The position numbers were made by a program, and so were the translations under genes. The notes beneath the pieces were generated by a model that was not told where the DNA came from, did not search any database, and saw only the letters and a program-made list of their open reading frames with translations. Below, piece by piece: positions 3,651 to 20,207 of a stretch of 64,000 nt of DNA (positions are counted from its first letter, which is position 1; each line of letters starts with the position of its first letter). The DNA lies in contig CAWHST010000004.1 of assembly GCA_963832055.1 (NCBI GenBank), forward strand, positions 454,409 through 518,408, given 5' to 3'. The stretch comes from an uncultured Gemmatimonadales bacterium (GTDB lineage: Bacteria; Gemmatimonadota; Gemmatimonadetes; Gemmatimonadales; GWC2-71-9).

Positions 3651-4637
3651 TCAGGTCCGTTCGCGAACACGATAGGCCCGGCGGTGCGGGGCGCGCAGAT
3701 GGACGATGATCTCGCCGACCAGGCCGAGTCCCAGGAGCTGCACGCCCAGGGCCAGCAACAGGACCGCGAGCAGCAGCAACGGCCGGTTGGCGATGCCCTG
3801 GCCCTCGATGCGGTTGACCAGGAGCACCAGCGAGGTGATCGCGCCGGCGAGGAAGAACCCGGAGCCCACCAGCCCGAAGAAGCGCAGGGGCTTCTCGGTG
3901 AATTTGGCGAGGAAGAAGAACGCGGCGATGTCGAGCAGCCGGCGGACGTAGACCCCGGGCCCGTACAGCCGGGTGCGGGCGTTGCTCGGGTGCTGGGGCA
4001 CGGCCACCTCGGTCACCCGGTACCCCTCGCGCAGGGCCAGCGCCGGAATGAAGCGGTGGAGGTCGCCGTAGAGCGGGAGCCCCTCGGCCACGGTCCGGCG
4101 GATCACTCGGACGCCGCAGGCGATGTCGTGGAACGGGCGGTCGGTGACCCCGGCGATCATCCGGTTGAAGGCCGCCGACTGCAGCCGGTTGAGCCAGCCG
4201 TCGATGCGGGGCGACCGGCTGGCCACGACCATGTCGGTCTCGTCGCTCAGCGCGTCCAGCAGCATCCCGACGCCCTCGGGCTTCACCTGGAAGTAGGCGG
4301 GCAGCGTCAGGATCACGTCGCCCCGGCTCCGCTCGATGCCGAGTCGCAGTGCCGCGGTCTCGCCGAAGGCGCGGGCAAAGCGGAGAAAGCGGATGTGCTC
4401 CCGCTCCTGGCTCAGTGCGGAGAGCTCGGGGGGAGGGGTGTTCCCGCCGTCGAACACGAAGATGAACTCGTGCTCCGCGCCTCGGGATTCCAGCTCGGCG
4501 GTGAAGGTCCGGTACAGGGCCACGAGATCATCCGCCCTCTCGACGACCGGAACGACCACCGAGATGTATCCGGCGCCGGCGCCGCTTTTGGCGGGCGACC
4601 GCTCGAGGGACGGTTCCATCAGCACACCCTGCCCCAT
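3651..4637 (-). CDS. GT2 glycosyltransferase with C-terminal TM helices (polyprenyl-phosphate glycosyltransferase-like)
   Basis: ISVVVPVVERADDL...FIFVFDGG...DMVVASR...HRFIPALA, followed by a hydrophobic tail (FFGLVGSGFFLAGAITSLVLLV...LLLLAVLLLALGVQLLGLGLVGE). The ORF is intact. Confidence 0.85.
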   Translation of the reverse strand: MGQGVLMEPSLERSPAKSGAGAGYISVVVPVVERADDLVALYRTFTAELESRGAEHEFIFVFDGGNTPPPELSALSQEREHIRFLRFARAFGETAALRLGIERSRGDVILTLPAYFQVKPEGVGMLLDALSDETDMVVASRSPRIDGWLNRLQSAAFNRMIAGVTDRPFHDIACGVRVIRRTVAEGLPLYGDLHRFIPALALREGYRVTEVAVPQHPSNARTRLYGPGVYVRRLLDIAAFFFLAKFTEKPLRFFGLVGSGFFLAGAITSLVLLVNRIEGQGIANRPLLLLAVLLLALGVQLLGLGLVGEIIVHLRAPHRRAYRVRERT

Positions 4638-4638
4638 G

Positions 4639-5611
4639 TCAACGGACCTCCCAGGCTGTCGGAATCTCGTTGGCGCTTTCCCGCTCGCTGCTCAAGGCCA
4701 CCTCGGCTACCAGTCCCAGCATCAACAGGTAGAACGCGGCGCCGGCGCACAGCAGCGCGGCACCGGGAAAGACCAGGGCCTCGGCCTTGGACTGCTGGAA
4801 CTCCATCGCGGCCACCACGGCCATCGCCGCGAAGAGCAGTGCTCCGATCACCATCGGCACCGCCAGCGTGCCGAACCCGAGCAGCGGGCGCGAGCGGAAG
4901 GTGGTGATCATCTTGAGGGTGAGCAGGTCGGCCAGCACCTTCACCGTGCGTGAAATGCCGTACTTGCTCTCGCCGAACCGGCGGGCGTGATGGCGAACCG
5001 GCATCTCGGTGATCCGTGCGCCCACGCTCGCGCTGAGGGCCGGGATGAAGCGGTGCTGCTCCGCGTAGAGCGAGATCCGGTCGAGCAGCTCCCGGCGGTA
5101 GGCCTTGAGCGAGCAGCCGTTGTCCGTAATCTGTACCCCGGTCAGACGCCGGATGATCCGGTTCGCGACCCATGACGGCACCTTGCGCAAGAGAAACTTG
5201 TCCTGCCGCTGTTGCCGCCATCCGCAGACCAGGTCGTACCCCTCGTCGAGCTTGGCCAGGAGAGCCGGGATGTCACGCGGATCGTTCTGCAGGTCGCCGT
5301 CCAACGACACGATCACGCGTCCCCGGGCGTGATCGAACCCGGCCATCATGGCCGCGGTCTGGCCCACGTTTCGTCCCAAACCGAGTCCTCGAACCCTCGG
5401 GTCGCCTGCCGACGCGGCGGCCACTCGGGTCCAGGTGTCGTCCCGGCTCCCGTCGTCCACCAGGATGACCTCGAAGCTACCGGAATAGCCGGCGAGGCGC
5501 CTCGAGGATCCAGTCGACGAGAGGAGCCACGTTCTGAGACTCGTTGTACAACGGGGCGACCACCGACAGGTCGAGCTGGTCGGCCGGCGCCGTCGGGGCA
5601 ATCGAGGCCAT
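4639..5611 (-). CDS. GT2 glycosyltransferase (GtrB/DPM-synthase-like) with C-terminal TM helices; frameshift near ~5500
   Basis: The N-terminus MASIAPTAPADQLDLSVVAPLYNESQNVAPLVDWI lies in ORF 5477..5680. The rest is in ORF 4639..5649 (FEVILVDDGSRDDT...VSLDGDLQNDP...CGWRQQRQD...HRFIPAL...). The gene abuts the downstream GT2 (4637/4639). Confidence 0.85.
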
Positions 5612-5847
5612 GTCGCGTAGGCTTTCCGGTTTGTTGGACCCGGCTGCAAGATATGGACTTGACCCGCGCCTTACCAGCAATCCGCGTTCCGCTCACGCCC
5701 ACCTGGACCGCAGAGGCCAACCAATGGCGTGTCAATGATTTGTACCAAACGGCGGGACCCGGCCGGGAGCCGAGTGGTGGCGGATCGCACGAATATGGCC
5801 AGGGGACGACAGCGAGGACTCCAGGGCCCAACCGGTGGGGGCGAAGC

Positions 5848-6606
5848 TCACCAGCCTCCGCGGCGGAGAAAGACCACCGGGATGGTCTGCAGCATGATGC
5901 GGATGTCTTCGCCCAGGCTCCGCCGCCGGATGTACTCCAGGTCGTAGCGAACCTTGGTCCGGACGTCGTCCACCGAGCGGTCGTAGTGGTGGTGGATCTG
6001 GGCCAGGCCCGTGATCCCCGGCTTGGCCCGCTGGCGCAGCGGGTACTCGGCGATGTGCTCCCGCAGCTCGGCGAAGATGGTGGGCCGCTCGGGCCGGGGG
6101 CCGACGATGTTCATCTCGCCCCGCATGACGTTCAGCAGCTGGGGGATCTCGTCCAGCCGGTACTGGCGGAGGAAGCGGCCGACCGGGGTGATCCGGGGAT
6201 CGTTCTGGGTGGCCCAGACCGCGCCGGTGGCGCGCTCGGCGTCCACCTGCATCGTGCGGAACTTGTAGATGGTGAAGGGCTGGCCCCCGAGGTCACGGGT
6301 GCGCCGGCGGTTCCCCGCGTCGTTCCCGGAGGCGCGTCGGTCGAGCCCGACCCGCTCCTGCAGGTAGAGTACCGGGCCTCGGGAGGTGAGCTTGATGGCC
6401 AGGGCGATCAGGAGGAGCAATGGCAGCGCGACGAACAGGGCCAAGGCGGCGATGATGAGATTCATCACGCGATGCGCGGTGACATCCGCCTCCTCGACCA
6501 GAGCGTGCGCACCGGAGACGCGCACGCGCGCCGGGCTCGGCGACATCGAGCCCGTCAACAACTGGTGTGAAGGCTGTCGCCGCGGTCCCGAGGTGGCTAT
6601 GCCCAT
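5848..6606 (-). CDS. Undecaprenyl-phosphate sugar phosphotransferase (bacterial sugar transferase family, small EpsL/WbaP C-terminal type)
   Basis: ...LTSRGPVLYLQERVG...FTIYKFRTM...DPRITPVGRFLRQYRLDEIPQLLNVMRGEMNIVGPRPERP...KPGITGLAQI. The start is uncertain, with alternatives at 6546 or 6465. Confidence 0.9.
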   Translation of the reverse strand: MGIATSGPRRQPSHQLLTGSMSPSPARVRVSGAHALVEEADVTAHRVMNLIIAALALFVALPLLLLIALAIKLTSRGPVLYLQERVGLDRRASGNDAGNRRRTRDLGGQPFTIYKFRTMQVDAERATGAVWATQNDPRITPVGRFLRQYRLDEIPQLLNVMRGEMNIVGPRPERPTIFAELREHIAEYPLRQRAKPGITGLAQIHHHYDRSVDDVRTKVRYDLEYIRRRSLGEDIRIMLQTIPVVFLRRGGW

Positions 6607-8554: not shown

Positions 8555-10075
8555 ATGGCCCACCCGCCGGCGCAGCCGGAGCGCAATGGTCCGCCCGCCT
8601 CAGAGGCGCCGCGCGATCCCCTATCCATTCCCAGCGAGGTCAAGGCGAGCATCCGTGTGCTCGTCGTGGACGATGAGCGCACGCTGCGGGAGAGCTGCGC
8701 GAGCGTGCTCCAGATGGACGGCTTCAATGTGACGCTGGTGGGGCGGGGCGAGGAGGCGCTGGAAACCGTCAAGCGGCGGAAGTTCGACATCATCCTGGTG
8801 GACCTGTACATGTCCCAGATCTCCGGTCTGGAGATCCTCCAGGCCGCGCTGGCCGCCTACAAGGACACCATCGTCGTCGTGATGACGGGCAACCCGAGCG
8901 TGACGAGCAGCATCGAGGCGCTCCGCGCAGGAGCCTGGGACTACCTCCCCAAGCCGTTCTCGGCGACCCACCTCCAGGTGCTCATCGGCCGTGCCTCGCA
9001 CGCGGTGATGATGTCCCGCGAGGCGCAGGACCTCCGGGTTCAGCTGATGAAGCAGCACGGGCACAGCGACAAGATCGCGTTGATCGGGATCTCGCCGCTG
9101 TTCCGCAAGGCCGTCGAGCTCGCCCGCAAGGTCGCGGCGACCGACGCGTCGGTCTTCATCAGTGGGGAGAGCGGCACCGGCAAGGAGGTCATCGCCCAGT
9201 TCATCCACCAGAACAGCCGTCGGGCCAGCCGGCCGCTGGTGCCGATCAACTGCGCCGCCCTCCCCGAGCCGCTCCTCGAGAGCGAGATGTTCGGGCACCG
9301 CAAAGGCGCCTTCACCGGTGCCGATCGGGACAAGCCCGGCCTGCTCGAGACCGCCAACGGCGGAACGCTCTTTCTCGACGAGCTGACCGAGATGACCATG
9401 CCGCTCCAGGCCAAGCTGCTGCGGGTCATCCAGGACGGCGTGGTGCGCCGGGTGGGGAGCGAGCAGCAGGACGCCGTGGTGGACGTCCGCTTCGTCTCCG
9501 CCACCAACCGCGAGCCGCAGGAGGCGGTGGATTCCGGCATCCTCCGGGGCGATCTCTTCTACCGCCTGCGGGTGGTGCCCATCAAGCTCCCGCCGCTCCG
9601 CAAGCGGCCGGAGGACATCCCGCTTCTCGCCAACCATTTTCTCACCTACTATTGGCAGCGTCATCGCCAGATGGGCGACCGGGCGCCCCGGCTCAGCGAG
9701 GCCAGCATCGGCTTCTTGCGCTCCCGGCCCTGGCGCGGCAACGTTCGGGAGTTGCAGAACGTGATCGAGCACGTCGCCGTGCTCGTCGAGCCCGATCAGG
9801 TGATTCAACCGAACGATATCCCGGTCTATGACGACGGAGCCGAGTGGCCCGCCGAGAGCGCGGTGCCGTCCGCCGTCATGGACGAGGCGTACCACCCCGC
9901 GAAAGACCGCGTCGTGGCGCAGTTCGAGAAGGAGTACCTGACCCGGCTGGTCAACCGCGCCGGGGGCAACATGTCGAAGGCGGCGCGGCTGGCCAGCATC
10001 GACCGGACCACCCTGTACCGGTTGATGGACAAGCACGAGTTTCATCGAGACGAGACACCCGGATCGACCGATTGA
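8555..10075 (+). CDS. Sigma-54-dependent response regulator (NtrC family: REC + AAA+ + Fis-type HTH)
   Basis: REC (RVLVVDDERTLRE...DIILVDLYMSQISGLE). AAA+ with Walker A GESGTGKE, the GAFTGA loop (RKGAFTGADRDKPG) and the ...WRGNVRELQN motif. C-terminal HTH (GGNMSKAARLASIDRTTLYRLM). Confidence 0.93.
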   Translation: MAHPPAQPERNGPPASEAPRDPLSIPSEVKASIRVLVVDDERTLRESCASVLQMDGFNVTLVGRGEEALETVKRRKFDIILVDLYMSQISGLEILQAALAAYKDTIVVVMTGNPSVTSSIEALRAGAWDYLPKPFSATHLQVLIGRASHAVMMSREAQDLRVQLMKQHGHSDKIALIGISPLFRKAVELARKVAATDASVFISGESGTGKEVIAQFIHQNSRRASRPLVPINCAALPEPLLESEMFGHRKGAFTGADRDKPGLLETANGGTLFLDELTEMTMPLQAKLLRVIQDGVVRRVGSEQQDAVVDVRFVSATNREPQEAVDSGILRGDLFYRLRVVPIKLPPLRKRPEDIPLLANHFLTYYWQRHRQMGDRAPRLSEASIGFLRSRPWRGNVRELQNVIEHVAVLVEPDQVIQPNDIPVYDDGAEWPAESAVPSAVMDEAYHPAKDRVVAQFEKEYLTRLVNRAGGNMSKAARLASIDRTTLYRLMDKHEFHRDETPGSTD

Positions 10076-10122
10076 CGCCTGATACCGCGATCTCCGGGAC
10101 CTCCAGCGGCGAGCGCCGCCGG

Positions 10123-11250
10123 GTGGGGTCGGGGTTACCCTCTCCACCTGCCAGGCTGTGGGAGCCCGACGGCCCGCGGCCAGCGGCCATCGGCCCAGCG
10201 CTGTGGGAGGCGCTGCGCGAAGCGGTGCATGCGACCCAGGCGGAGTGGGAACGGGCGATCGAGCACGCCTCGGGGGCCGAAGAGGTCACCAACCAGCTGG
10301 CCCAGCTCTCCACCGCGGTGCGGCAACACCTCCTCGGCCCTGTCGGTGAGCCCACCGAAGTGGCCCGGACCGCGCTCGCTCGCCGGCTGCTCGGCCTCAT
10401 CCGCGGCGCCTTTCTGGACCGGGCACAGTCTCTCCCGGCGCCGCCCGATTCCGGACAGCTGCTGCGCATGCTGGGTGCGATCGAGCACGTGAGCCAGCGG
10501 CTCGAGGCCGACTGGGCCCAGCATTTCACCGACCGGCTCTCCTCGCCCGACGGGCTCGAGCTGGTGGTCGAAGTCGCCCACGATCTTCGCTCGCCGCTCA
10601 CCTCGATCCTGTTCCTCGCCGAGACCCTCCAGCGCGGCCGGAGCGGGCCGGTCAATCCGGTCCAGGAGCGTCAGCTCGGCCTCATCTACAGCGCGGCCTT
10701 CGGCCTCAGCTCGGTGGCGAGCGACGTGATCGAGCTGGCCCGGGGCGGCGACCGGCTGGTGGATCTCGACCCGATCCCGTTCTCGGTCACCGATATCTTC
10801 GAGTCGGTGCGGGACATCGTCCAGCCGATCGCCGAGGAGAAGAACCTCAGCGTGCGGCTCGCCACCCCCGAAGCGGATTTCCGGATCGGGCACCCGGTGG
10901 CCTTGAGCCGGGTGCTGCTCAACCTCACCACCAACGCCCTCAAGTTCACCGCCGAGGGATTCGTGGAAGTGGTTGCCCGCCAGACCGGCGCCCGGCGCAT
11001 CGAGTTCTCGGTTCGCGACACCGGCCGCGGCATCCCTCCCCAGTCCATGGCCACCCTGTTCGAGCCGTTCCGCCGGCGGCAGAAGCACAACGAGTACGCC
11101 TTCTCGGGCTCCGGGCTGGGGCTCTCCATCTGCCGCAAGCTGGTGGAGGCGATGGGCTCCACCCTGCAGGTCGAGACCGAGCAATCGGTGGGAACCCGCT
11201 TCTATTTCGAGCTGGACCTGCCGCTGGCCGGCGAGACGGCGCTCGGGTAG
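10123..11250 (+). CDS. Sensor histidine kinase (HisKA + HATPase_c), cytoplasmic
   Basis: H-box VAHDLRSPLTSILFLAETL, N-box LLNLTTNALKFT and G-boxes VRDTGRGIP / GSGLGLSIC. The track ORF starts at 9844 inside the NtrC gene. I place the start at the in-frame GTG at 10123, which is uncertain. Confidence 0.85.
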   Translation: MGSGLPSPPARLWEPDGPRPAAIGPALWEALREAVHATQAEWERAIEHASGAEEVTNQLAQLSTAVRQHLLGPVGEPTEVARTALARRLLGLIRGAFLDRAQSLPAPPDSGQLLRMLGAIEHVSQRLEADWAQHFTDRLSSPDGLELVVEVAHDLRSPLTSILFLAETLQRGRSGPVNPVQERQLGLIYSAAFGLSSVASDVIELARGGDRLVDLDPIPFSVTDIFESVRDIVQPIAEEKNLSVRLATPEADFRIGHPVALSRVLLNLTTNALKFTAEGFVEVVARQTGARRIEFSVRDTGRGIPPQSMATLFEPFRRRQKHNEYAFSGSGLGLSICRKLVEAMGSTLQVETEQSVGTRFYFELDLPLAGETALG

Positions 11251-11554
11251 GCGCCCCTACCCCCCGCGTAGGACCCCCGCTAAATTCTTGACGCTGGCCA
11301 CCCTGAGAGGCGAGTGCTGTTGCGCGAACCGGCGACCCGGCCGGCTGCCGCGCAGCCGAAGCCCGGCACCCCACGCATGGTGGCGACAGCGTGACCCCCA
11401 TGGCGGGTCTCAGCTCCCCAGCATCGCTCCACCGACCTGCCGCAGACCGGGTCCGGCGAGGTGTCGCGAGCGATGGGCGGGGAGCATGAGGCCCGGAACG
11501 AGAGAGACGTGAACCGACCCGATCCGGCCCGCTCGGCATCTGAGCCAGCCTCCC

Positions 11555-13169
11555 GTGCACGCCCCGAACGCCGCCCTGCTGATCGATTTCGACAATGTCA
11601 CCCTTGGCATCCAGAAAGACCTGACCAAGGAGCTGCGCACCCTTCTCAACAGCGACATCATCAAGGGCAAAGTCGCCGTCCAACGCGCCTACGCCGACTG
11701 GCGTCGCTACCCGCAGTACATCGTTTCCCTCTCCGAGTCGTCGATCGATCTCATCTTCGCGCCCGCCTTCGGGTCCACCAAGAAGAATGCGACCGACATC
11801 CGCCTCGCCATCGACGCGATCGAGCTGGTGTTCACCCGGCCCGAGATCGGGACCTTCATCCTGCTCTCCGGCGACAGCGACTTCTCGACCATGGTGATCA
11901 AGCTCAAGGAGTACGGGAAATACGTCATCGGGGTCGGGATCCGGGAGTCGGCCAGCGATCTCCTGATTCAGAACTGCGACGAGTATTACTCGTACAACGA
12001 TCTCGCCGGTCTCACCAAGGAAGTGGACACTCCGTCCATCCAGCGCGATCCGTGGGAGCTCGCGGGGCAGGCCGTGGCGCAGATGGCCCGCAACGGCGAC
12101 GTGATGCGGTCGGACCGGCTGAAGCAGGTCATGCAGCAGATCGACCCGAACTTCGACGAGCGCAACGCCGGCTTCAACCGCTTCAGCAAGTTCGTGCTCG
12201 AGGCGGGACAGCGCGGCGTGGTGACGGTGACCAAGCTCGACAACGGGCAGTTCGAGGTGTCTCCGGGAGCGGTGGCCGCCGCCGCGCCCGCGGCGCTGCC
12301 GGCGCCCCGGTCGCGAGACGGTGAGACCGCGCGAGCGCGAGCCCGCGAGCCCCGCGAGGGCCGGGAGGATGGAGGCCGGGGAAGGCGCGGCCGGCGCGGT
12401 GGCCGCGGCCGCGGCGAGCGCCAGGCGAGCCCGGCCGACGAGTCGTCGGTGCGCGACGCGCCGTCGAGCCGGCCGAGCCCGACCGACGGCGCGCTGTCCC
12501 TCGCCCGCGCGTTCCAGCTCATGGCGCAGGCGCTGAGCGAGCTCCGCGGCCCGGTCACCCAGGAGGCGCTCCGCCTGCGCATGGCGGCGCTGCACGGGCG
12601 CGAGGATGCCCTGCTCGATCCGGCGCGCTTTCCCCGGCTGCTGCGCCAGGCCAACGATGCCGAGATCGCCGATGTGCGGAAGGTCGGCGACGACGACTAT
12701 GAGATCTCGGATCGTCGCGGTGCGGGAATGGCGCCTCCGTCACCCGCTTTACCCGCGGTATCCCCCGCCTCGGGACCAGCGGTGGAGCCGGCCGATGGCG
12801 CCGAGCCCGCCGAACCGGCCGCCGAGGTCCCGGCCGGCGCCCGGGAGAACGGCCAGCGGTTCGGCGTTCGCTTCCGGCGCGGCTCGCGTGGTGGATTGCG
12901 CGCGGGGGAAATTCCGCTCATCGGCGTGGTGCAGATGGACGTCGCGCCGGTCGAGGCTCTGCCGAGCCGAGATCGCCGAGCCGACCGAAGCAATCGAGCC
13001 AAAGCCAGCCCGTCCTCGGCGGGCGCCCAGGAAGAAGAAGGCCGCGACCGCCACGGCGGCCAAGGCAGACAAGCCGGCCAAGGCGGAGGCGTCGGGTGAA
13101 GACCCTGGCGCGGCTCCGGTGGCCACGGCCAAGCGAGGCCGGACCCGGGCCCGGAAGAAAGCGGAGTGA
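11555..13169 (+). CDS. NYN-domain (PIN-like RNase fold) protein with OST-HTH/LOTUS-like region and basic low-complexity tail; frameshift near ~12965
   Basis: N-terminus ALLIDFDNVTLG...VQRAYADW...DLIFAPAFGSTKKNATDIRLAIDAIEL...ILLSGDSDFSTMVIKLKEYGKYVIGVG is the limkain-b1-type NYN pattern. Helical segments follow, then an R/G/E-rich stretch. The frame of ORF 12606..13169 ends in a Lys/Ala-rich tail (...PRKKKAATATAAKADKPAKAE...KRGRTRARKKAE), and its stop forms a GTGA overlap with the next gene's start. Confidence 0.75.
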
Positions 13170-13951
13170 AGCGGCAACGACGGGCAGCGACGCTGCCCGT
13201 CGCGTTTTTCGACCGGCCCGCCGATGTCGTGGCGCGCGAGCTGTTGGGAGCGCTGGTGGTGTCACGGGCCGGTGGCGCCCGCACCAGCGCCCGGATCGTC
13301 GAGACCGAGGCCTACCTGGGCTACCGCGATCCGGCCTCCCACGGATACCTCCACCGCCGAAACGACCGCAACGCCGCGCTGTTCGGCCCGCCGGGCTCGT
13401 GGTACGTGTACTTGTCGTATGGAATCCACTGGTGCGCCAACCTCGTGTGCGGTGCGGAAGGAACGGCGGGCGCGGTCCTGTTGCGTGCGCTGGAGCCGGT
13501 GGAAGGCCTGGAGTGGATGCGGGAGCGAAGGGGCAGGGTGGACGACCGCGACCTTTGCTCGGGGCCGGGAAAGCTGTGCCAGGCGCTGGGTATCACCCGG
13601 GGCCTCGACGGCCGCATGATGCCGGACGCGGAGGTCGTCGTGATGCCGCCTTCGGTGGCCCTCCCGTTCCAGATCCTCACCACGCCGCGCATCGGCATCA
13701 CCAAGGCGGCCGATTGGCCGCTTCGGTTCGTGGTGGAGGGGAATCCGCACCTATCGGGGCGGGGCGGCGGGTGCGGGCCGGTCTTAGGCTCTCCAGCGGT
13801 CCGCCGGAGTGACGCAGCTAGAAAACGACGACGGGCAGCGCTCTCACGCTGCCCGTCGTTTCGTTGGTGGGGTGCCGCGCCGGCTACTTGTACCCGCCGG
13901 TCTTCACCGATTCGCGGGCGCCGCCGAGGCCGAACCGGAGGCCGCCGCTGA
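13166..13951 (+). CDS. DNA-3-methyladenine glycosylase (MPG/AAG family); 3' end probably over-extended
   Basis: LPVAFFDRPADVVARELLG...ARIVETEAYLG..DPASH......GPPGSWYVYLSYGIHWCANLV...VLLRALEP...GPGKLCQALGI...PRIGITKAADWPLRF is the family signature. The family normally ends soon after ...GNPHLS. The two other frames have stops at 13786-13788 and 13810-13812, just before a terminator hairpin at 13824. Confidence 0.85.
   Translation: MKRQRRAATLPVAFFDRPADVVARELLGALVVSRAGGARTSARIVETEAYLGYRDPASHGYLHRRNDRNAALFGPPGSWYVYLSYGIHWCANLVCGAEGTAGAVLLRALEPVEGLEWMRERRGRVDDRDLCSGPGKLCQALGITRGLDGRMMPDAEVVVMPPSVALPFQILTTPRIGITKAADWPLRFVVEGNPHLSGRGGGCGPVLGSPAVRRSDAARKRRRAALSRCPSFRWWGAAPATCTRRSSPIRGRRRGRTGGRR
13177..13209 (+). 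terminator. Intrinsic-terminator-like hairpin + T5 (palindrome family C, copy 1)
   Basis: ACGACGGGCAGCG A CGCTGCCCGTCG followed by CGTTTTT. It lies immediately after the NYN-gene stop (13169) and inside the first ~15 codons of the glycosylase ORF. Confidence 0.5.
13824..13865. terminator. Bidirectional terminator-like hairpin (palindrome family C, copy 2)
   Basis: AACGACGACGGGCAGCG CTCTCA CGCTGCCCGTCGTT, flanked by A-rich sequence on the left and T-rich sequence on the right. It lies between the convergent glycosylase and OMP genes. Confidence 0.5.
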
Positions 13952-14568
13952 AGGTGTGGGTCGGCCCGCTGAGCAGCCGGCCGAACGCGACCGGATTGCC
14001 GTCGGCATCGGAGACCGACGTCGTTGCCCGGGCTGGTGGTGATCTGATATTGGCCGAAGGCCATCAGCCGACCGAGCTGGAAGGTGATGCCGGCCAGGAA
14101 GGTGCCGAATCCGGTGCTGCCGAGCTCTTCGGCATCGCTCTGGAACGCGGTCGCGTTCTGCGGGGTCGGGCTCACCACGTGCATGATGCCGTAGCCGACG
14201 CCGAGGTAGGGCTGCGCGGCGGCCTTGATCGGGTACGCCATCAACACCGCGGAGTACTTCCGGATGTCGTTGAACGTCACCGGCTGGGTCCCGCTCAGGT
14301 CGCTGTAGGCGCTGGTCTCGTCCGAGCCCACGCCCTCTTCGACCGAGAGCAGCAGGCCGGTCCGCCGGGCGATGATCAGGGTCTGGCCCCCGAAGGTCGG
14401 AATGGCGGTCCGGTCCTGCGTCGGGGTATCGAAGAACATGACCCCGCCCTGGCCACCCACGTACCACTGGAAGTTGCTGTTGCCGGGCTCCTGCGCGGCG
14501 GCAGAGAGCGCCCCCAATGACAGTGCCAGCGCCGCGACCGGAATGCTGCGAGAGAGCATGCGCATCAC
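13884..14568 (-). CDS. Outer-membrane beta-barrel protein (OmpA-like barrel/porin-family), frameshift near ~14010
   Basis: Signal peptide MMRMLSRSIPVAALALSLGALSAAAQE, then alternating beta-strand pattern (WYVGGQGGVMFF..., YLGVGYGIMHV, FLAGITFQLG...FGQYQITT). After a 1-nt correction the C-terminus reads ...VSDADGNPVAFGRLLSGPTHTFSGGLRFGLGGARESVKTGGYK*, with the stop at 13884-13886. The remainder of track ORF 13321..14568 is read-through. Confidence 0.75.
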
Positions 14569-17122: not shown

Positions 17123-17214
17123 AAAGCGTGAACGGTGAACAGTGAACGGTGAAAGGGAAGGTGGCATGACACGCACCCTCCCTTTCACCGTTCACTGTTC
17201 ACCGTTCACGCTTT
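17123..17214. repeat. REP-like palindromic element, family A copy 1 (arms built of GTGAACN heptads)
   Basis: The left arm is CGTGAACGGTGAACAGTGAACGGTGAAAGGGAAGGTG. The right arm is its reverse complement with one mismatch, and the loop is ~10 nt. The stop of the FdhA-like gene (17206-17208) lies inside the right arm, and the tdh start (17060) lies downstream. Confidence 0.7.
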
Positions 17215-20207
17215 TGTGGTAATGAATCCGCCTGGAGTTTGGCGACCCGCCGCCGCCGCTGGCTTGGCGAGCTCTCTTGCCCTCGCCCGCTCGATGCGGA
17301 CCGCGCTGATCTTGAACGCGGCGATGCGGGCGTAAGGGTCGAGCTGCGGGTTGGTCAGCAGGTTGGCGGCGGCCTCCCGGAAATGCATCGGCATGAACAC
17401 CTGGCCCAGCGCCTGCCGGTCGGAGATGCGGACCCCGATGAGCACCGCCCCGCGGCGGGAAGTGACCCGAACGGTGTCGCCCTCGCATACGCCGAGGTCG
17501 ATGGCGTCGGCGGGATGGATCTCGATGATCGGGGTCGGCTCGCGGGAGTCGAGCCCTTCCGACCGGCGCGACATCGTTCCGGTGTGCCAGTGGTACATCT
17601 GGCGCCCGGTGTTGAGGATGTACGGGTACTCCTCGCTCGGCAGCTCGTCCGGCTTGAGGAACTCGACGGGCACGAAGCGGGCCTTGCCGTCCGGCGTGGG
17701 AAACGCGTCCTGGAAGAGAAACGGCGTACCGGTCGAGTCGGGGGTCGGCACCGGATACTGGATCGAGCGCAGCCGCTCGAGCATCGCGTAGCTCACCCCG
17801 CGCCACGACGGCGTCACGCTGGCGATCTCGCGCATCACGTCGCCCGGCGAGCGATAGTCGGTGGGCAGCCCGAGCCGGTTGCTCAGCTCGATCAGGATGT
17901 CGAGGTCGCGGCGCGCCTGACCGGGCGGATCGAGCGCGGCCTCGGTGAGCTGAATGTGGCGGTCGGTATTGACGAAGGTGCCACCCTTTTCGGCGAAGGA
18001 GGAGCCCGGGCAGCACCACGTCCGCCCAGCGCGCGGTCTCGGTGAGGAACAGGTCCTGTACCGCCAGGAACTCCAGCCCGCGCACCCAGTGCTCGGCGTG
18101 GGAGATGTTCGGATCGGAGAGCACCGGGTTCTCGCCCATGATGTAGAGGCCGCGGATCGGGCTGTCGTCCTGCACCATCTCCGTGACCATCAGTCCGTGC
18201 TGGAGCGAGAGGGACTCCTCCGGCACCCGCCAGGCCTTGGCGTACTCGGCGCGGTTGGCGGCGTCGGTGACCGGCCGGTAGTCGGTGTAGGCGAACGGGA
18301 TCGCGCCCATGTCGCTGGCGCCCTGCACGTTGTTCTGGCCCCGGATGGGGAGCATCGCCGCGCCCCACTTCCCGATCATCCCGCAGGCGAGCATCAGGTT
18401 CAACAGGCTCGCCACGATGTCGGTGCCGGTGTTGTGCTGGGTGAGGCCCATCGCCCAAAGGGTCGAGGTGCGCGGTCCCCGGGCATACATCTCCGCGGCG
18501 GCGCGGATGGTCGCCGCCGGGATGCCGGTGATCTTGGCGGTGCTCTCCGGGGTGTAGCCCGCGACCGACTCCTTTACCTTCTCGAAATCGTGGGTCCGCC
18601 CCTCGATGAACTTCCGGTCGGTGAGCCCGGCGGCGATGATGTGGTTCACCATCCCGTTGTAGAGCGCCACGTCGGTGCCCGGCAACATCTGGAGATGGAT
18701 GTCGGCCAGGTCGGCAAGCTCCGTGCGCCGGACGTCGGCGACGATGAGGCGCGCGCCCTTGGATACCGCCCGCTTGATCAGCGCGCCGAAGACCGGATGG
18801 GTCTCGGTGGTATTGGCGCCCGAGATGAAGATGACGTCGCACGCCTCCTCGATCTCCCGCATCGAGCCCGACGCCGCGGAGGTCGCGAGCGCGCGGCCCA
18901 TCGCCGCCACGGAGCTCGAGTGGCAGAGCCGGGTGCAGTGGTCCACGCTGTTGGTGCCGAAGCCGGCCCGGACCATCCGCATGAAGACGTAGTTGTCCTC
19001 GTTGCTGCACTTGGCGGAGGAGAGCGCGGCCAGCGCGCGCGGGCCGTGGACCTGGCGGATCCGCTTCAGCTCCTGAGCCACCAGGCTCAGCGCCTCATCC
19101 CAGGTGGCCTCGCGGAACGCGCTGTGCCATGCCGGCGGGGTGGCGACGCGATCGCGCACGTCGTCCTCCTCCGCGTTGGGCACGCCGGTCATCGGCGGCT
19201 TTCCCACGCTGCGCTGTGGGCGGCCGAGGCTTCTTTCGAGAGCCCATCTCCTCGATCGTCTGCCAGGGGCCTTCGCGGTGCCGGGGCCATTCGCCGGTCC
19301 ATACCCACTGCTCGCCGTCGTGCATCCAGCCTTTGCGGATCACCGGGGTCATCAACCGGTCCCGGTGCATCGGGAAGTCGTAGCCGAAGCGCCCCTTCAC
19401 GCAGGTCGAGCCCTGGTTCGGCGTCCGCTCCTCGATGTCGGGCGAGGTGACCCGCATGATCTGGTCGCCTTTCACGTGGAGATCGATCTGGCACCCTACG
19501 CCGCAGTAGGGACAGACCGAGCGGACCACCTTGTCGGGGGTGCGGACGGCCTCCGATCCGAAGCGCTGTTTGGGGATGAACTCGAAGATCGCTCCGGTGG
19601 GGCAGACCCGGACGCACTCGCCGCACCAGGTGCAGCCCGCGTGATCGGGGTCGCCGTCGCCGCCGACGATGATCTGAGCATGCTCGCCCCGCATCCCCAC
19701 ATCGAGCACCCCTACCTCCTGGATGTCCTCGCAGGCCCGCACGCAGCGGGTGCAGAGGATGCAGGTGCTCATGTCGTGCTGGATCATCACGTCGCCGGGA
19801 CGCTCGTCGCCGGACCGGAGGGGAAGCTCGTGATAGTCGCGGATGGGGACGTCGTACTGAGTGACGTAGCGCTCGAACTCGTTGCGCGGGTGGCTGCGTC
19901 CACCGTTCTGGAGGTGCTCGCCCGGATATCGCTCGAGCAGGAGGCCGAGAACGCCCCGACGACTCTCTACGGCGGCCTGGGACTCGGTCTCCACCACCAT
20001 GCCCTCGGCCGCCGGCGTGGCGCAGGCGGGCACCATCTTGCCCTGGCCCTGAACCGACACCAGGCAGATGCGGCAGTTCCCCACGATGGGCAACTTGGGG
20101 TACCAGCAGAGGGTCGGGATGTCGATGCCGGCGGCCCGGGCGGCCTCCAGGATGGTGGCCCCAGGCTCGAAAGCAACGTCACTGCCGTTGACGACAATCT
20201 TGGCCAT
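17206..20207 (-). CDS. FdhA/FdsA-like molybdopterin oxidoreductase alpha subunit (2Fe-2S + 4Fe-4S + MopB + C-terminal molybdopterin-binding domain); two frameshifts
   Basis: ORF 19095..20207 gives MAKIVVNGSDV...CWYPKLPIVGNCRICLV..., the CILCTRCVRAC, CTWCGECVRVCP and CPYCGVGCQIDLH clusters. ORF 17192..19207 gives ...CSNEDNYVF...DHCTRLCHSSS...GANTTETHPV...RGQNNVQG. The frame of ORF 17206..17838 extends upstream to ~18005 (SSFAEKGGTFVNTDRHIQL...YILNTGRQMYHWHTG...). Shifts at ~19210 and ~18005. Confidence 0.88.

Follow-up and report, generated by a model that had tools for sequence, protein, structure and literature searches.

A conserved NYN-LOTUS protein of the Gemmatimonadetes, predicted to be an endoribonuclease and encoded next to a 3-methyladenine DNA glycosylase

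Bacterial proteins in which a NYN nuclease domain (LK-nuclease or DUF88; PF01936, COG1432 'LabA-like') is followed by OST-HTH (LOTUS) winged helices were described in 2010 (PMC2848206) and 2017 (PMC5499597) as predicted stand-alone enzymes of RNA degradation, none of which had been tested; an earlier note on the DNA studied here, made from the sequence alone, stated in agreement with these sources that none of the bacterial members has been assigned a function. A gene of this type is found in a stretch of 64,000 nucleotides from an uncultured Gemmatimonadales bacterium (assembly GCA_963832055.1, contig CAWHST010000004.1, positions 454,409 to 518,408), referred to below as the window. As read, it consists of an open reading frame (ORF) of 514 aa on the plus strand (11555-13099) and an overlapping ORF in another frame (12606-13169), which raises the question of what protein is made from this locus and what it does. 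The best overall explanation, given a probability of about 0.62, is that the gene encodes a stand-alone, LOTUS-targeted endoribonuclease and is transcribed with the downstream gene mpg, and that the breaks in its frame are artefacts.

Extent of the gene and domains of its product

A protein search returned thousands of relatives, the best being proteins of 530-580 aa from Gemmatimonadales metagenome-assembled genomes (MAGs), which align to just the first ~91% of the window ORF; the gene call deposited for the genome corresponds to the 514-aa ORF. Residue numbers of the intact protein are given here after one relative used as a proxy (locus L001, 551 aa). Judged by sequence comparison, the locus is the Gemmatimonadetes orthologue of the bacterial LK-nuclease plus OST-HTH family, in a lineage-specific and elaborated form; the bacterial design was already known in 2010.

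The start at 11555 assumed in the earlier note was not borne out. The frame is open back to a GTG located 46 nt upstream, or to its equivalent, in nearly all of 80 genomic loci. This GTG is taken as the true start because an in-frame stop occurs immediately 5' of it in several loci (L005, L059 and others), because the valine of VHAPN, the residue at 11555, is replaced by L, T, P, S, A or H in distant loci, and because representative homologues begin to match from their own residue ~20. The N-terminal extension gained in this way (residues 1-17, ~16 aa) reads V/M-N-[RK]-P-(L)-I-R-P-[AG]-R-H-L-S-Q-P-P and is followed by VHAPN.

The NYN fold proposed for the first ~150 aa was recovered with the Pfam profile PF01936 (E 7e-25, 88.6 bits against a cut-off of 24.2), which matches aa 6-146 of the 11555 ORF over 142 of its 145 positions, and a genome-wide search returned the same gene at 92.2 bits. 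The acidic active-site residues, whose conservation had been proposed as a check on this assignment, are invariant: D26, D28, N29, D96, D102, D122 and D124 (motif classes D/D/N, T-D, D and D-S-D) are present in all 44 homologous sequences compared, down to 50% identity. Within the class the NYN domain is 82-100% identical (median 92%), and identity drops to 2-30% in the linkers. The motifs align with those of 2QIP (E 1e-5) and with KNAADD and S(T)D of MARF1 (6FDL), which hold D426 and D452, active-site residues defined experimentally as catalytic (PMC6294520); the position equivalent to MARF1 D427 is an isoleucine, and the similarity to 6FDL is marginal (E 1.1 with the NYN domain alone as query). 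Sequence searches of the PDB with the whole protein and with a profile returned no structure beyond 2QIP. The domain is predicted to be a metal-dependent PIN-like endonuclease with an intact acidic active site.

The helical segments that follow had been taken for OST-HTH modules, and two are found, on different kinds of evidence. The first, LOTUS1, reaches 20.8 bits with PF12872 in the whole protein (aa 183-232 of the 11555 ORF), under the cut-off of 23.8, and 24.6 bits when scanned alone; all 18 homologues examined match the profile (best E 1.2e-5). The second, LOTUS2, was recognized by profile-profile comparison with LOTUS1 (hhalign, 95% probability, E 2.9e-8, 67 columns) and by AlphaFold, which models both domains as H-H-H-E-E winged helices with a predicted local distance difference test (pLDDT) score of ~96 and the linkers as disordered. 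Foldseek gave weak winged-helix matches, including the TDRD7 LOTUS domain 3rco (TMt 0.70) and 2lh9 (0.62), all with poor E-values. Profile comparison and the structural model together support the homology of LOTUS2 to LOTUS1 and its assignment as a LOTUS-like winged helix. Since the profiles favour NYN and OST-HTH and the acidic motifs are invariant, the domain assignment made in the earlier note stands.

Disorder is predicted for about 55% of the protein, in which acidic blocks alternate with Arg-rich ones. The linker between the LOTUS domains (L001 ~253-327) is A/P-rich, then R/E-rich and ends with the RGG box, so the RG/RE low-complexity region noticed earlier is present; an acidic A/P/E linker (401-445) follows LOTUS2. 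Next comes a short linear motif with the class-wide core [LV]RFRRGSR-x5-8-[IV]P[LM][IV]GVV, and the protein ends with a K/A/P tail (...PRKKKAATATAAKADKPAKAE...KRGRTRARKKAE) read in the frame of the ORF 12606-13169. This tail had been called histone H1-like: the K/A/P composition in the predicted frame was found, no match to the linker-histone Pfam domain was obtained in the protein, and the likeness is compositional only. What is conserved in its ~55 aa are two short basic clusters (consensus KPxRPRRAPRKK and KRxRxRxRKKAE) separated by a variable, partly acidic spacer. Neither the Arg-rich region nor the tail, regarded before as unusual, is special to the window genome, as both show conservation throughout the class. 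Within the conserved final codons of the tail (...AAG AAG GCG GAG TGA) lie a purine-rich, Shine-Dalgarno-like stretch and the overlapping start of mpg; for this reason the conservation of the terminal KKAE may owe as much to the translation signals of mpg as to protein function. In distant subfamilies the RKKAE end is replaced by a short C-terminus resembling an amphipathic helix (...ESFWSKVKRGLTGGA in L056, L060, L070 and L079; ...LLRRMTAALKKVVEGPDAE in L069, L073 and L076), and these ends may resemble membrane-targeting sequences such as that of MinD.

Table 1. Features of the NYN-LOTUS locus in window coordinates; residue numbers refer to the intact relative L001.
Feature	Position	Strand	Basis or remark
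Leader 5' of the start	11400..11508	+	~110-nt relic of an acyl-CoA ligase 3' end, ...LPQTGSGEVSRA...
Whole gene (NYN-LOTUS-RGG-LOTUS-basic tail)	11509..13169	+	~551 codons in relatives; uninterrupted ORFs of relatives and DNA alignments
Conserved GTG start	11509-11511	+	In-frame stops; alignment of homologues
Frame break 1	11521	+	Extra base relative to L001 and L002, GACCC[G]ATCC; DNA alignment
NYN/LK-nuclease (PIN-like) domain	11570..11992	+	PF01936; residues 18-170
NYN motif LLIDFDN	11576-11596	+	Alignment
NYN motif KKNATDIRLAIDA	11780-11818	+	Alignment
NYN motif LLSGDSDFS	11861-11887	+	Alignment
LOTUS/OST-HTH domain 1	12041..12265	+	Winged helix HHH-EE; PF12872; residues 178-252
Disordered Arg/Glu-rich linker	12308..12424	+	RG/RE region RSRDGETARARAREPREGREDGGRGRRGRRGGRGRGERQ, ending in the RGG box
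Conserved RGG box GGRGRRGRRGGRGRGER	12371-12421	+	Alignment of relatives
LOTUS2, divergent winged helix (LSLARAFQLM...RLLRQANDAEIADVRKVGDDDYEISD)	12494..12712	+	hhalign and AlphaFold; residues 328-400
Conserved short linear motif NGQRFGVRFRRGSRGGLRAGEIPLIGVV	12848..12931	+	Within residues 446-474
Frame break 2	12965-12968	+	AGCC (4 bases) against GTC (3) in L001; DNA alignment
Acidic A/P/E spacer and bipartite basic tail	12969..13166	+	Residues 475-551; stop TGA 13167-13169
Basic cluster KPARPRRAPRKKK	13002-13040	+	Frame of ORF 12606-13169
Basic cluster KRGRTRARKKAE	13131-13166	+	Frame of ORF 12606-13169; the conserved last codons span 13131-13169
mpg, 3-methyladenine DNA glycosylase (Pur_DNA_glyco)	13166..13805	+	PF02245, E 5.6e-65; NF002003
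GC-rich hairpin, stem CGACGGGCAGCG / CGCTGCCCGTCG, then TTTTT	13178..13202	+	Fold -29.7 kcal/mol, z -3.3

Distribution, the glycosylase partner and the intervening hairpin

In a phylum-wide sample, one strong copy of the gene (E <= 1e-146) occurs in each of the 62 genomes of the same class, and the long form was found in none of the 19 genomes from sister classes. The window genome, too, has a single copy. One of the sister-class genomes (G012) encodes a 259-aa homologue with NYN and a single LOTUS domain, which has no glycosylase neighbour. The gene mpg is located immediately 3' in 68 of the 69 loci that extend far enough, and in most cases the stop and start share an ATGA or GTGA, as in the window, where the GTG of mpg at 13166 overlaps the stop of the NYN gene. 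The adjacency persists in distant orders in which the other neighbours have changed. In one short-read MAG (L046, ~3998-6181) the NYN-LOTUS ORF continues into mpg as a single frame of 727 codons, either a true fusion or an assembly error. The end of mpg in the window is near 13800; the called ORF reaches 13951 owing to a frame break near 13765, and the one-frame match of the 212-aa Mpg protein of L002 covers its residues 1-200 only.

The terminator that had been placed after the gene exists as a terminator-like hairpin with a T-run, although it lies inside the first codons of mpg: it is embedded in codons 5-13, which read RAATLPVAFF in the window and R-A-A-T-L-P-V-x-F-F across loci. The hairpin (CGGGCAGC-loop-GCTGCCCG, then T5-6) is found 10-25 nt past the NYN stop in 40 of 68 loci. 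Its stem is invariant, including a GCA codon whose partner on the other arm is the T of CTG, and shows in consequence little true covariation; the loop is variable, with insertions that stay in frame. Its position and form suggest an intercistronic terminator or 3'-stabilizer which would also gate the translation of mpg. Just past mpg (13828-13859) there is another hairpin, built on an identical 12-nt stem (CGACGGGCAGCG/CGCTGCCCGTCG), which is shared with L002 and L003 and has the orientation of a terminator for the convergent outer membrane protein (OMP) gene; the two copies bracket mpg.

On the 5' side the window gene follows genes for a sigma-54 response regulator (8555-10075) and a histidine kinase (10090-11250), and both the two-component pair upstream and the DNA glycosylase downstream are as they had been described. 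In distant loci (L026, L030, L040, L056, L069, L076) an acyl-CoA ligase gene is present in full and overlaps the start of the NYN gene in a GTGA, and in the clade of the window a degenerate relic of this ligase (...LPQTGSGEVSRAMGG...) remains between the histidine kinase and NYN genes, its DNA still highly conserved. A structured RNA in the 5' leader, considered on account of the block ACCGGGTCCGG and its seemingly covarying flanks, was rejected, as the block corresponds to the T-G-S-G(K) motif of the acyl-CoA ligase C-terminus. Rfam returned nothing over 11150-14100 except a chance-level match to sroE (E 0.077).

Proposed activity and competing readings

The domain composition is best read as that of an active endoribonuclease targeted by its LOTUS domains and Arg-rich disordered elements. 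Both LOTUS domains together with the RGG box, the RFRRGSR motif and the bipartite basic tail would capture single-stranded, G-rich or structured RNA and pass it to the NYN nuclease. For the LOTUS fold there is a bacterial precedent, since the domain of TP0894 binds G-quadruplex (G4) RNA in vitro, and LOTUS has a preference for RNA G4 over DNA G4 (PMC7498356). A connection of the family with RNA and ribosomes is given by Slr1870, which has an OST-HTH domain, and Slr0650 of Synechocystis, both of which co-purify with Rbp3 and ribosomes (PMC12232666). The protein would work as a stand-alone housekeeping enzyme beside RNase Y and RNase G: genes for RNase Y and for a short, RNase G-type enzyme occur in all the relatives searched, in which RNase J was not found, so the NYN protein is regarded as an additional nuclease and not as a replacement. 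The idea that it stands in for a missing major RNase was rejected on the same grounds. Membership in anti-phage defence was also rejected, given that the PADLOC models yielded only PDLC01154 (E 0.03, 11.7 bits) and that this is a single-copy core gene. The NYN gene and mpg would be transcribed together, with translation probably coupled because stop and start overlap, and the hairpin with its U-tract probably ends or stabilizes most transcripts 3' of the NYN gene, so that mpg would be limited to read-through.

Several points weigh against this proposal. RNase activity has been shown for no bacterial PF01936/COG1432 protein (PMC5499597), and NE0665, one of the two bacterial LOTUS domains assayed, did not bind G4 RNA (PMC7498356). 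The AlphaFold model of the NYN domain is poor (pLDDT 40-60), even if the alternating order of strands and helices is present. Foldseek found no match in the PDB at E <= 0.001. PF12872 matches LOTUS2 in none of 24 members (E <= 1). The hairpin, whose invariant stem offers scant covariation, is also protein-coding. Lastly, a role in RNA decay alone does not account for the close linkage to a DNA glycosylase that holds throughout the class.

This linkage is one argument for a role on the DNA side, or on DNA-RNA damage intermediates. DNA would be bound by the PIN/FEN-like NYN domain, the winged helices and the basic tail, and the protein would form with Mpg a two-gene repair module that acts on intermediates of base excision or removes alkylated nucleic acid. 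The overlapping genes and their retention in distant orders would fit such a module; another NYN gene is in an operon with the uracil-DNA glycosylase Udg4 (PMC5499597), the NYN fold is a member of the 5'->3' nuclease/FEN superfamily (PMC2848206), and among the Foldseek matches, all of them weak, are winged helices that bind DNA and the globular domain of H1. MARF1, the characterized relative with this domain pair, cleaves RNA, however, and the preference of LOTUS for RNA G4 points the same way. Moreover, the conserved terminator-like hairpin between the genes suggests that they are expressed at different levels, the short homologue of G012 lacks the glycosylase neighbour, and the ancestral operon also contained the acyl-CoA ligase gene, which means that history and not function may lie behind the linkage. 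A DNA-side role is therefore considered unlikely, although the linkage keeps a role related to DNA damage open.

Equally unlikely is that the protein acts mainly as a non-catalytic, RNA-binding organizer or regulator, the RGG box and charged disordered blocks driving ribonucleoprotein assemblies and the NYN domain binding RNA rather than cutting it; it would then be comparable to cyanobacterial LabA or to the LOTUS proteins of germ granules. The extent of predicted disorder, its alternating charge and the conserved RGG box are compatible with this reading, and animal LOTUS proteins organize ribonucleoprotein granules (PMC2848206); among cyanobacterial family members, Slr1870 and Slr0650 of Synechocystis co-purify with the RRM protein Rbp3 and with ribosomes (PMC12232666). 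Against it stands the invariance of all the acidic active-site residues across the class, as is typical of active PIN-like nucleases, while inactive PIN domains such as that of SMG5 lose these residues.

A more speculative and slightly less probable proposal combines both sides: the NYN-double-LOTUS protein and Mpg would form a nucleic acid damage module, in which the nuclease, by virtue of its RGG box and LOTUS domains, recognizes and eliminates RNA that is alkylated or stalled, or intermediates of RNA and DNA, perhaps within a condensate of its charged disordered blocks, Mpg repairs the DNA and the hairpin sets the ratio of the two proteins. If true, this would be the first function assigned to the bacterial LK-nuclease plus OST-HTH family, and a bacterial counterpart of the link between RNA decay and genome integrity known for MARF1.

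The proposal of an endoribonuclease encoded by an intact gene also requires that the frame breaks be accounted for. The frame correction that had been suggested near 12965 was exact: the contig of L001 is 96% identical to the window at this locus (DNA), and the alignment places a net gain of one base in the window at 12965-12968, beyond which the protein carries on in the frame of the ORF 12606-13169. Intact relatives run in one frame through ...IPLIGVVQMD..VEALPVEIAEPTEAIEPKP..RRAPRKKK...KRGRTRARKKAE and end in RKKAE. As the conserved start is at 11509 and not at 11555, a second extra base, the G at 11521, also falls within the gene, four codons past the GTG. Searches with L002 proteins revealed ~9 frame switches over ~17 kb of the window, about one per 2 kb, among them those in genes for a glycosyltransferase (~5500), Bac_transf (~5755 and ~5914), the OMP (~14030) and an FdhA-like protein (~18007 and ~19240). 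To match the pieces of its relative's protein, the FdhA-like molybdoenzyme gene (17206-20207) has to be read in three different frames, an oddity that may be due to frameshift artefacts.

The genome as a whole (G000; 3.99 Mb in 6 contigs) has a completeness score of only 62%, compared with 90-100% for almost all genomes of the phylum-wide sample and 70-100% for the close relatives used in the RNase searches. Both RNase E/G and RNase Y are encoded there in two frames each, whereas RNase E/G is a single match in 20 of 20 relatives and 19 of them have RNase Y at nearly full length, with a partial match in the remaining one (G083). Copies of the NYN-LOTUS gene that look broken in relatives are concentrated in long-read MAGs, being found in 5 of 16 'MFD' long-read MAG loci, one 'tig' locus and only two other loci, the assembly type being taken from record titles. 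On this indirect evidence, from the uninterrupted relatives, the frame switches nearby, the low completeness and the split RNase genes, both breaks are almost certainly errors of long-read assembly without biological meaning, and in the organism the gene most likely yields the complete protein of ~551 aa.

That the breaks are real, the gene being a pseudogene or encoding a truncated protein from the GTG at 11555 to 13099 with a 44-residue out-of-frame end in place of the basic tail, is very improbable. The shorter ORF is the deposited gene call and the change at 12965-12968 goes beyond a simple homopolymer slip; yet outside the break the gene shares 94% identity with an intact relative, with the NYN domain perfectly conserved, and the RNase G, RNase Y, mpg, OMP, glycosyltransferase and FdhA genes are broken in the same assembly, whose completeness is low for 4 Mb in 6 contigs. 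Programmed ribosomal frameshifting, suggested by two long ORFs overlapping on one strand, is effectively refuted, since the junction is in one frame in >60 relatives, the break is unique to the assembly of the window, and neither a slippery site nor a stimulatory structure is conserved there. As the assembly is riddled with single-base insertions and deletions, ORF-based readings across this genome need frame checks, and the quality control lesson is that the apparent frameshifts of the window should not be taken as pseudogenes or recoding.

Known relatives and significance

The protein shares with the bacterial LK-nuclease plus OST-HTH family a stereotyped architecture, an N-terminal NYN domain followed by single or duplicated OST-HTH domains. 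The Gemmatimonadetes form adds to it the RGG box, a very divergent LOTUS2, the RFRRGSR...PLIGVV motif, the bipartite basic tail and the N-terminal extension. The family overall is sporadic and has no conserved linkage to known RNA-processing genes (PMC2848206); in contrast, the Gemmatimonadetes gene is universal and single-copy in one class and fixed 5' of mpg.

With animal MARF1 (limkain-b1), to which the locus had been likened, the protein has in common the domain logic of a NYN endoribonuclease combined with LOTUS domains, the equivalents of D426 and D452 and the disordered regions. It lacks an RRM (Pfam) and has only two LOTUS-like domains instead of a tandem array of many; together with the marginal match to 6FDL, this makes 'MARF1-like architecture' the appropriate description and not MARF1 orthologue. 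In its organization it also resembles RNase E, in which the nuclease is followed by a long disordered C-terminal scaffold with Arg-rich RNA-binding segments and short conserved microdomains. The catalytic folds are unrelated, no partner proteins are known for the Gemmatimonadetes protein, and these genomes also encode the short RNase G-type enzyme and RNase Y.

The cyanobacterial proteins Slr1870 and Slr0650 of Synechocystis and LabA and LalA of Synechococcus, compared by their descriptions, belong to the PF01936 family as well, and Slr1870 also has OST-HTH. These proteins are much shorter, neither RGG/basic disordered regions nor glycosylase linkage are described for them, and LabA is known solely from the genetics of circadian output. 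VPA0982 of Vibrio parahaemolyticus (2QIP) carries the same D-x-D...LDA...SGDGDF motifs (E 1e-5) in a 165-aa single-domain protein of unknown function.

Proteins with PF01936 NYN and OST-HTH domains are widespread in bacteria and their biochemistry has so far been predicted only. The Gemmatimonadetes gene offers a good entry point into this family, being universal and single-copy, with a nuclease domain 82-100% identical across the class, eukaryote-style RGG/basic disordered regions, a fixed partner in mpg and an embedded hairpin, and cultured Gemmatimonas species make its protein testable.

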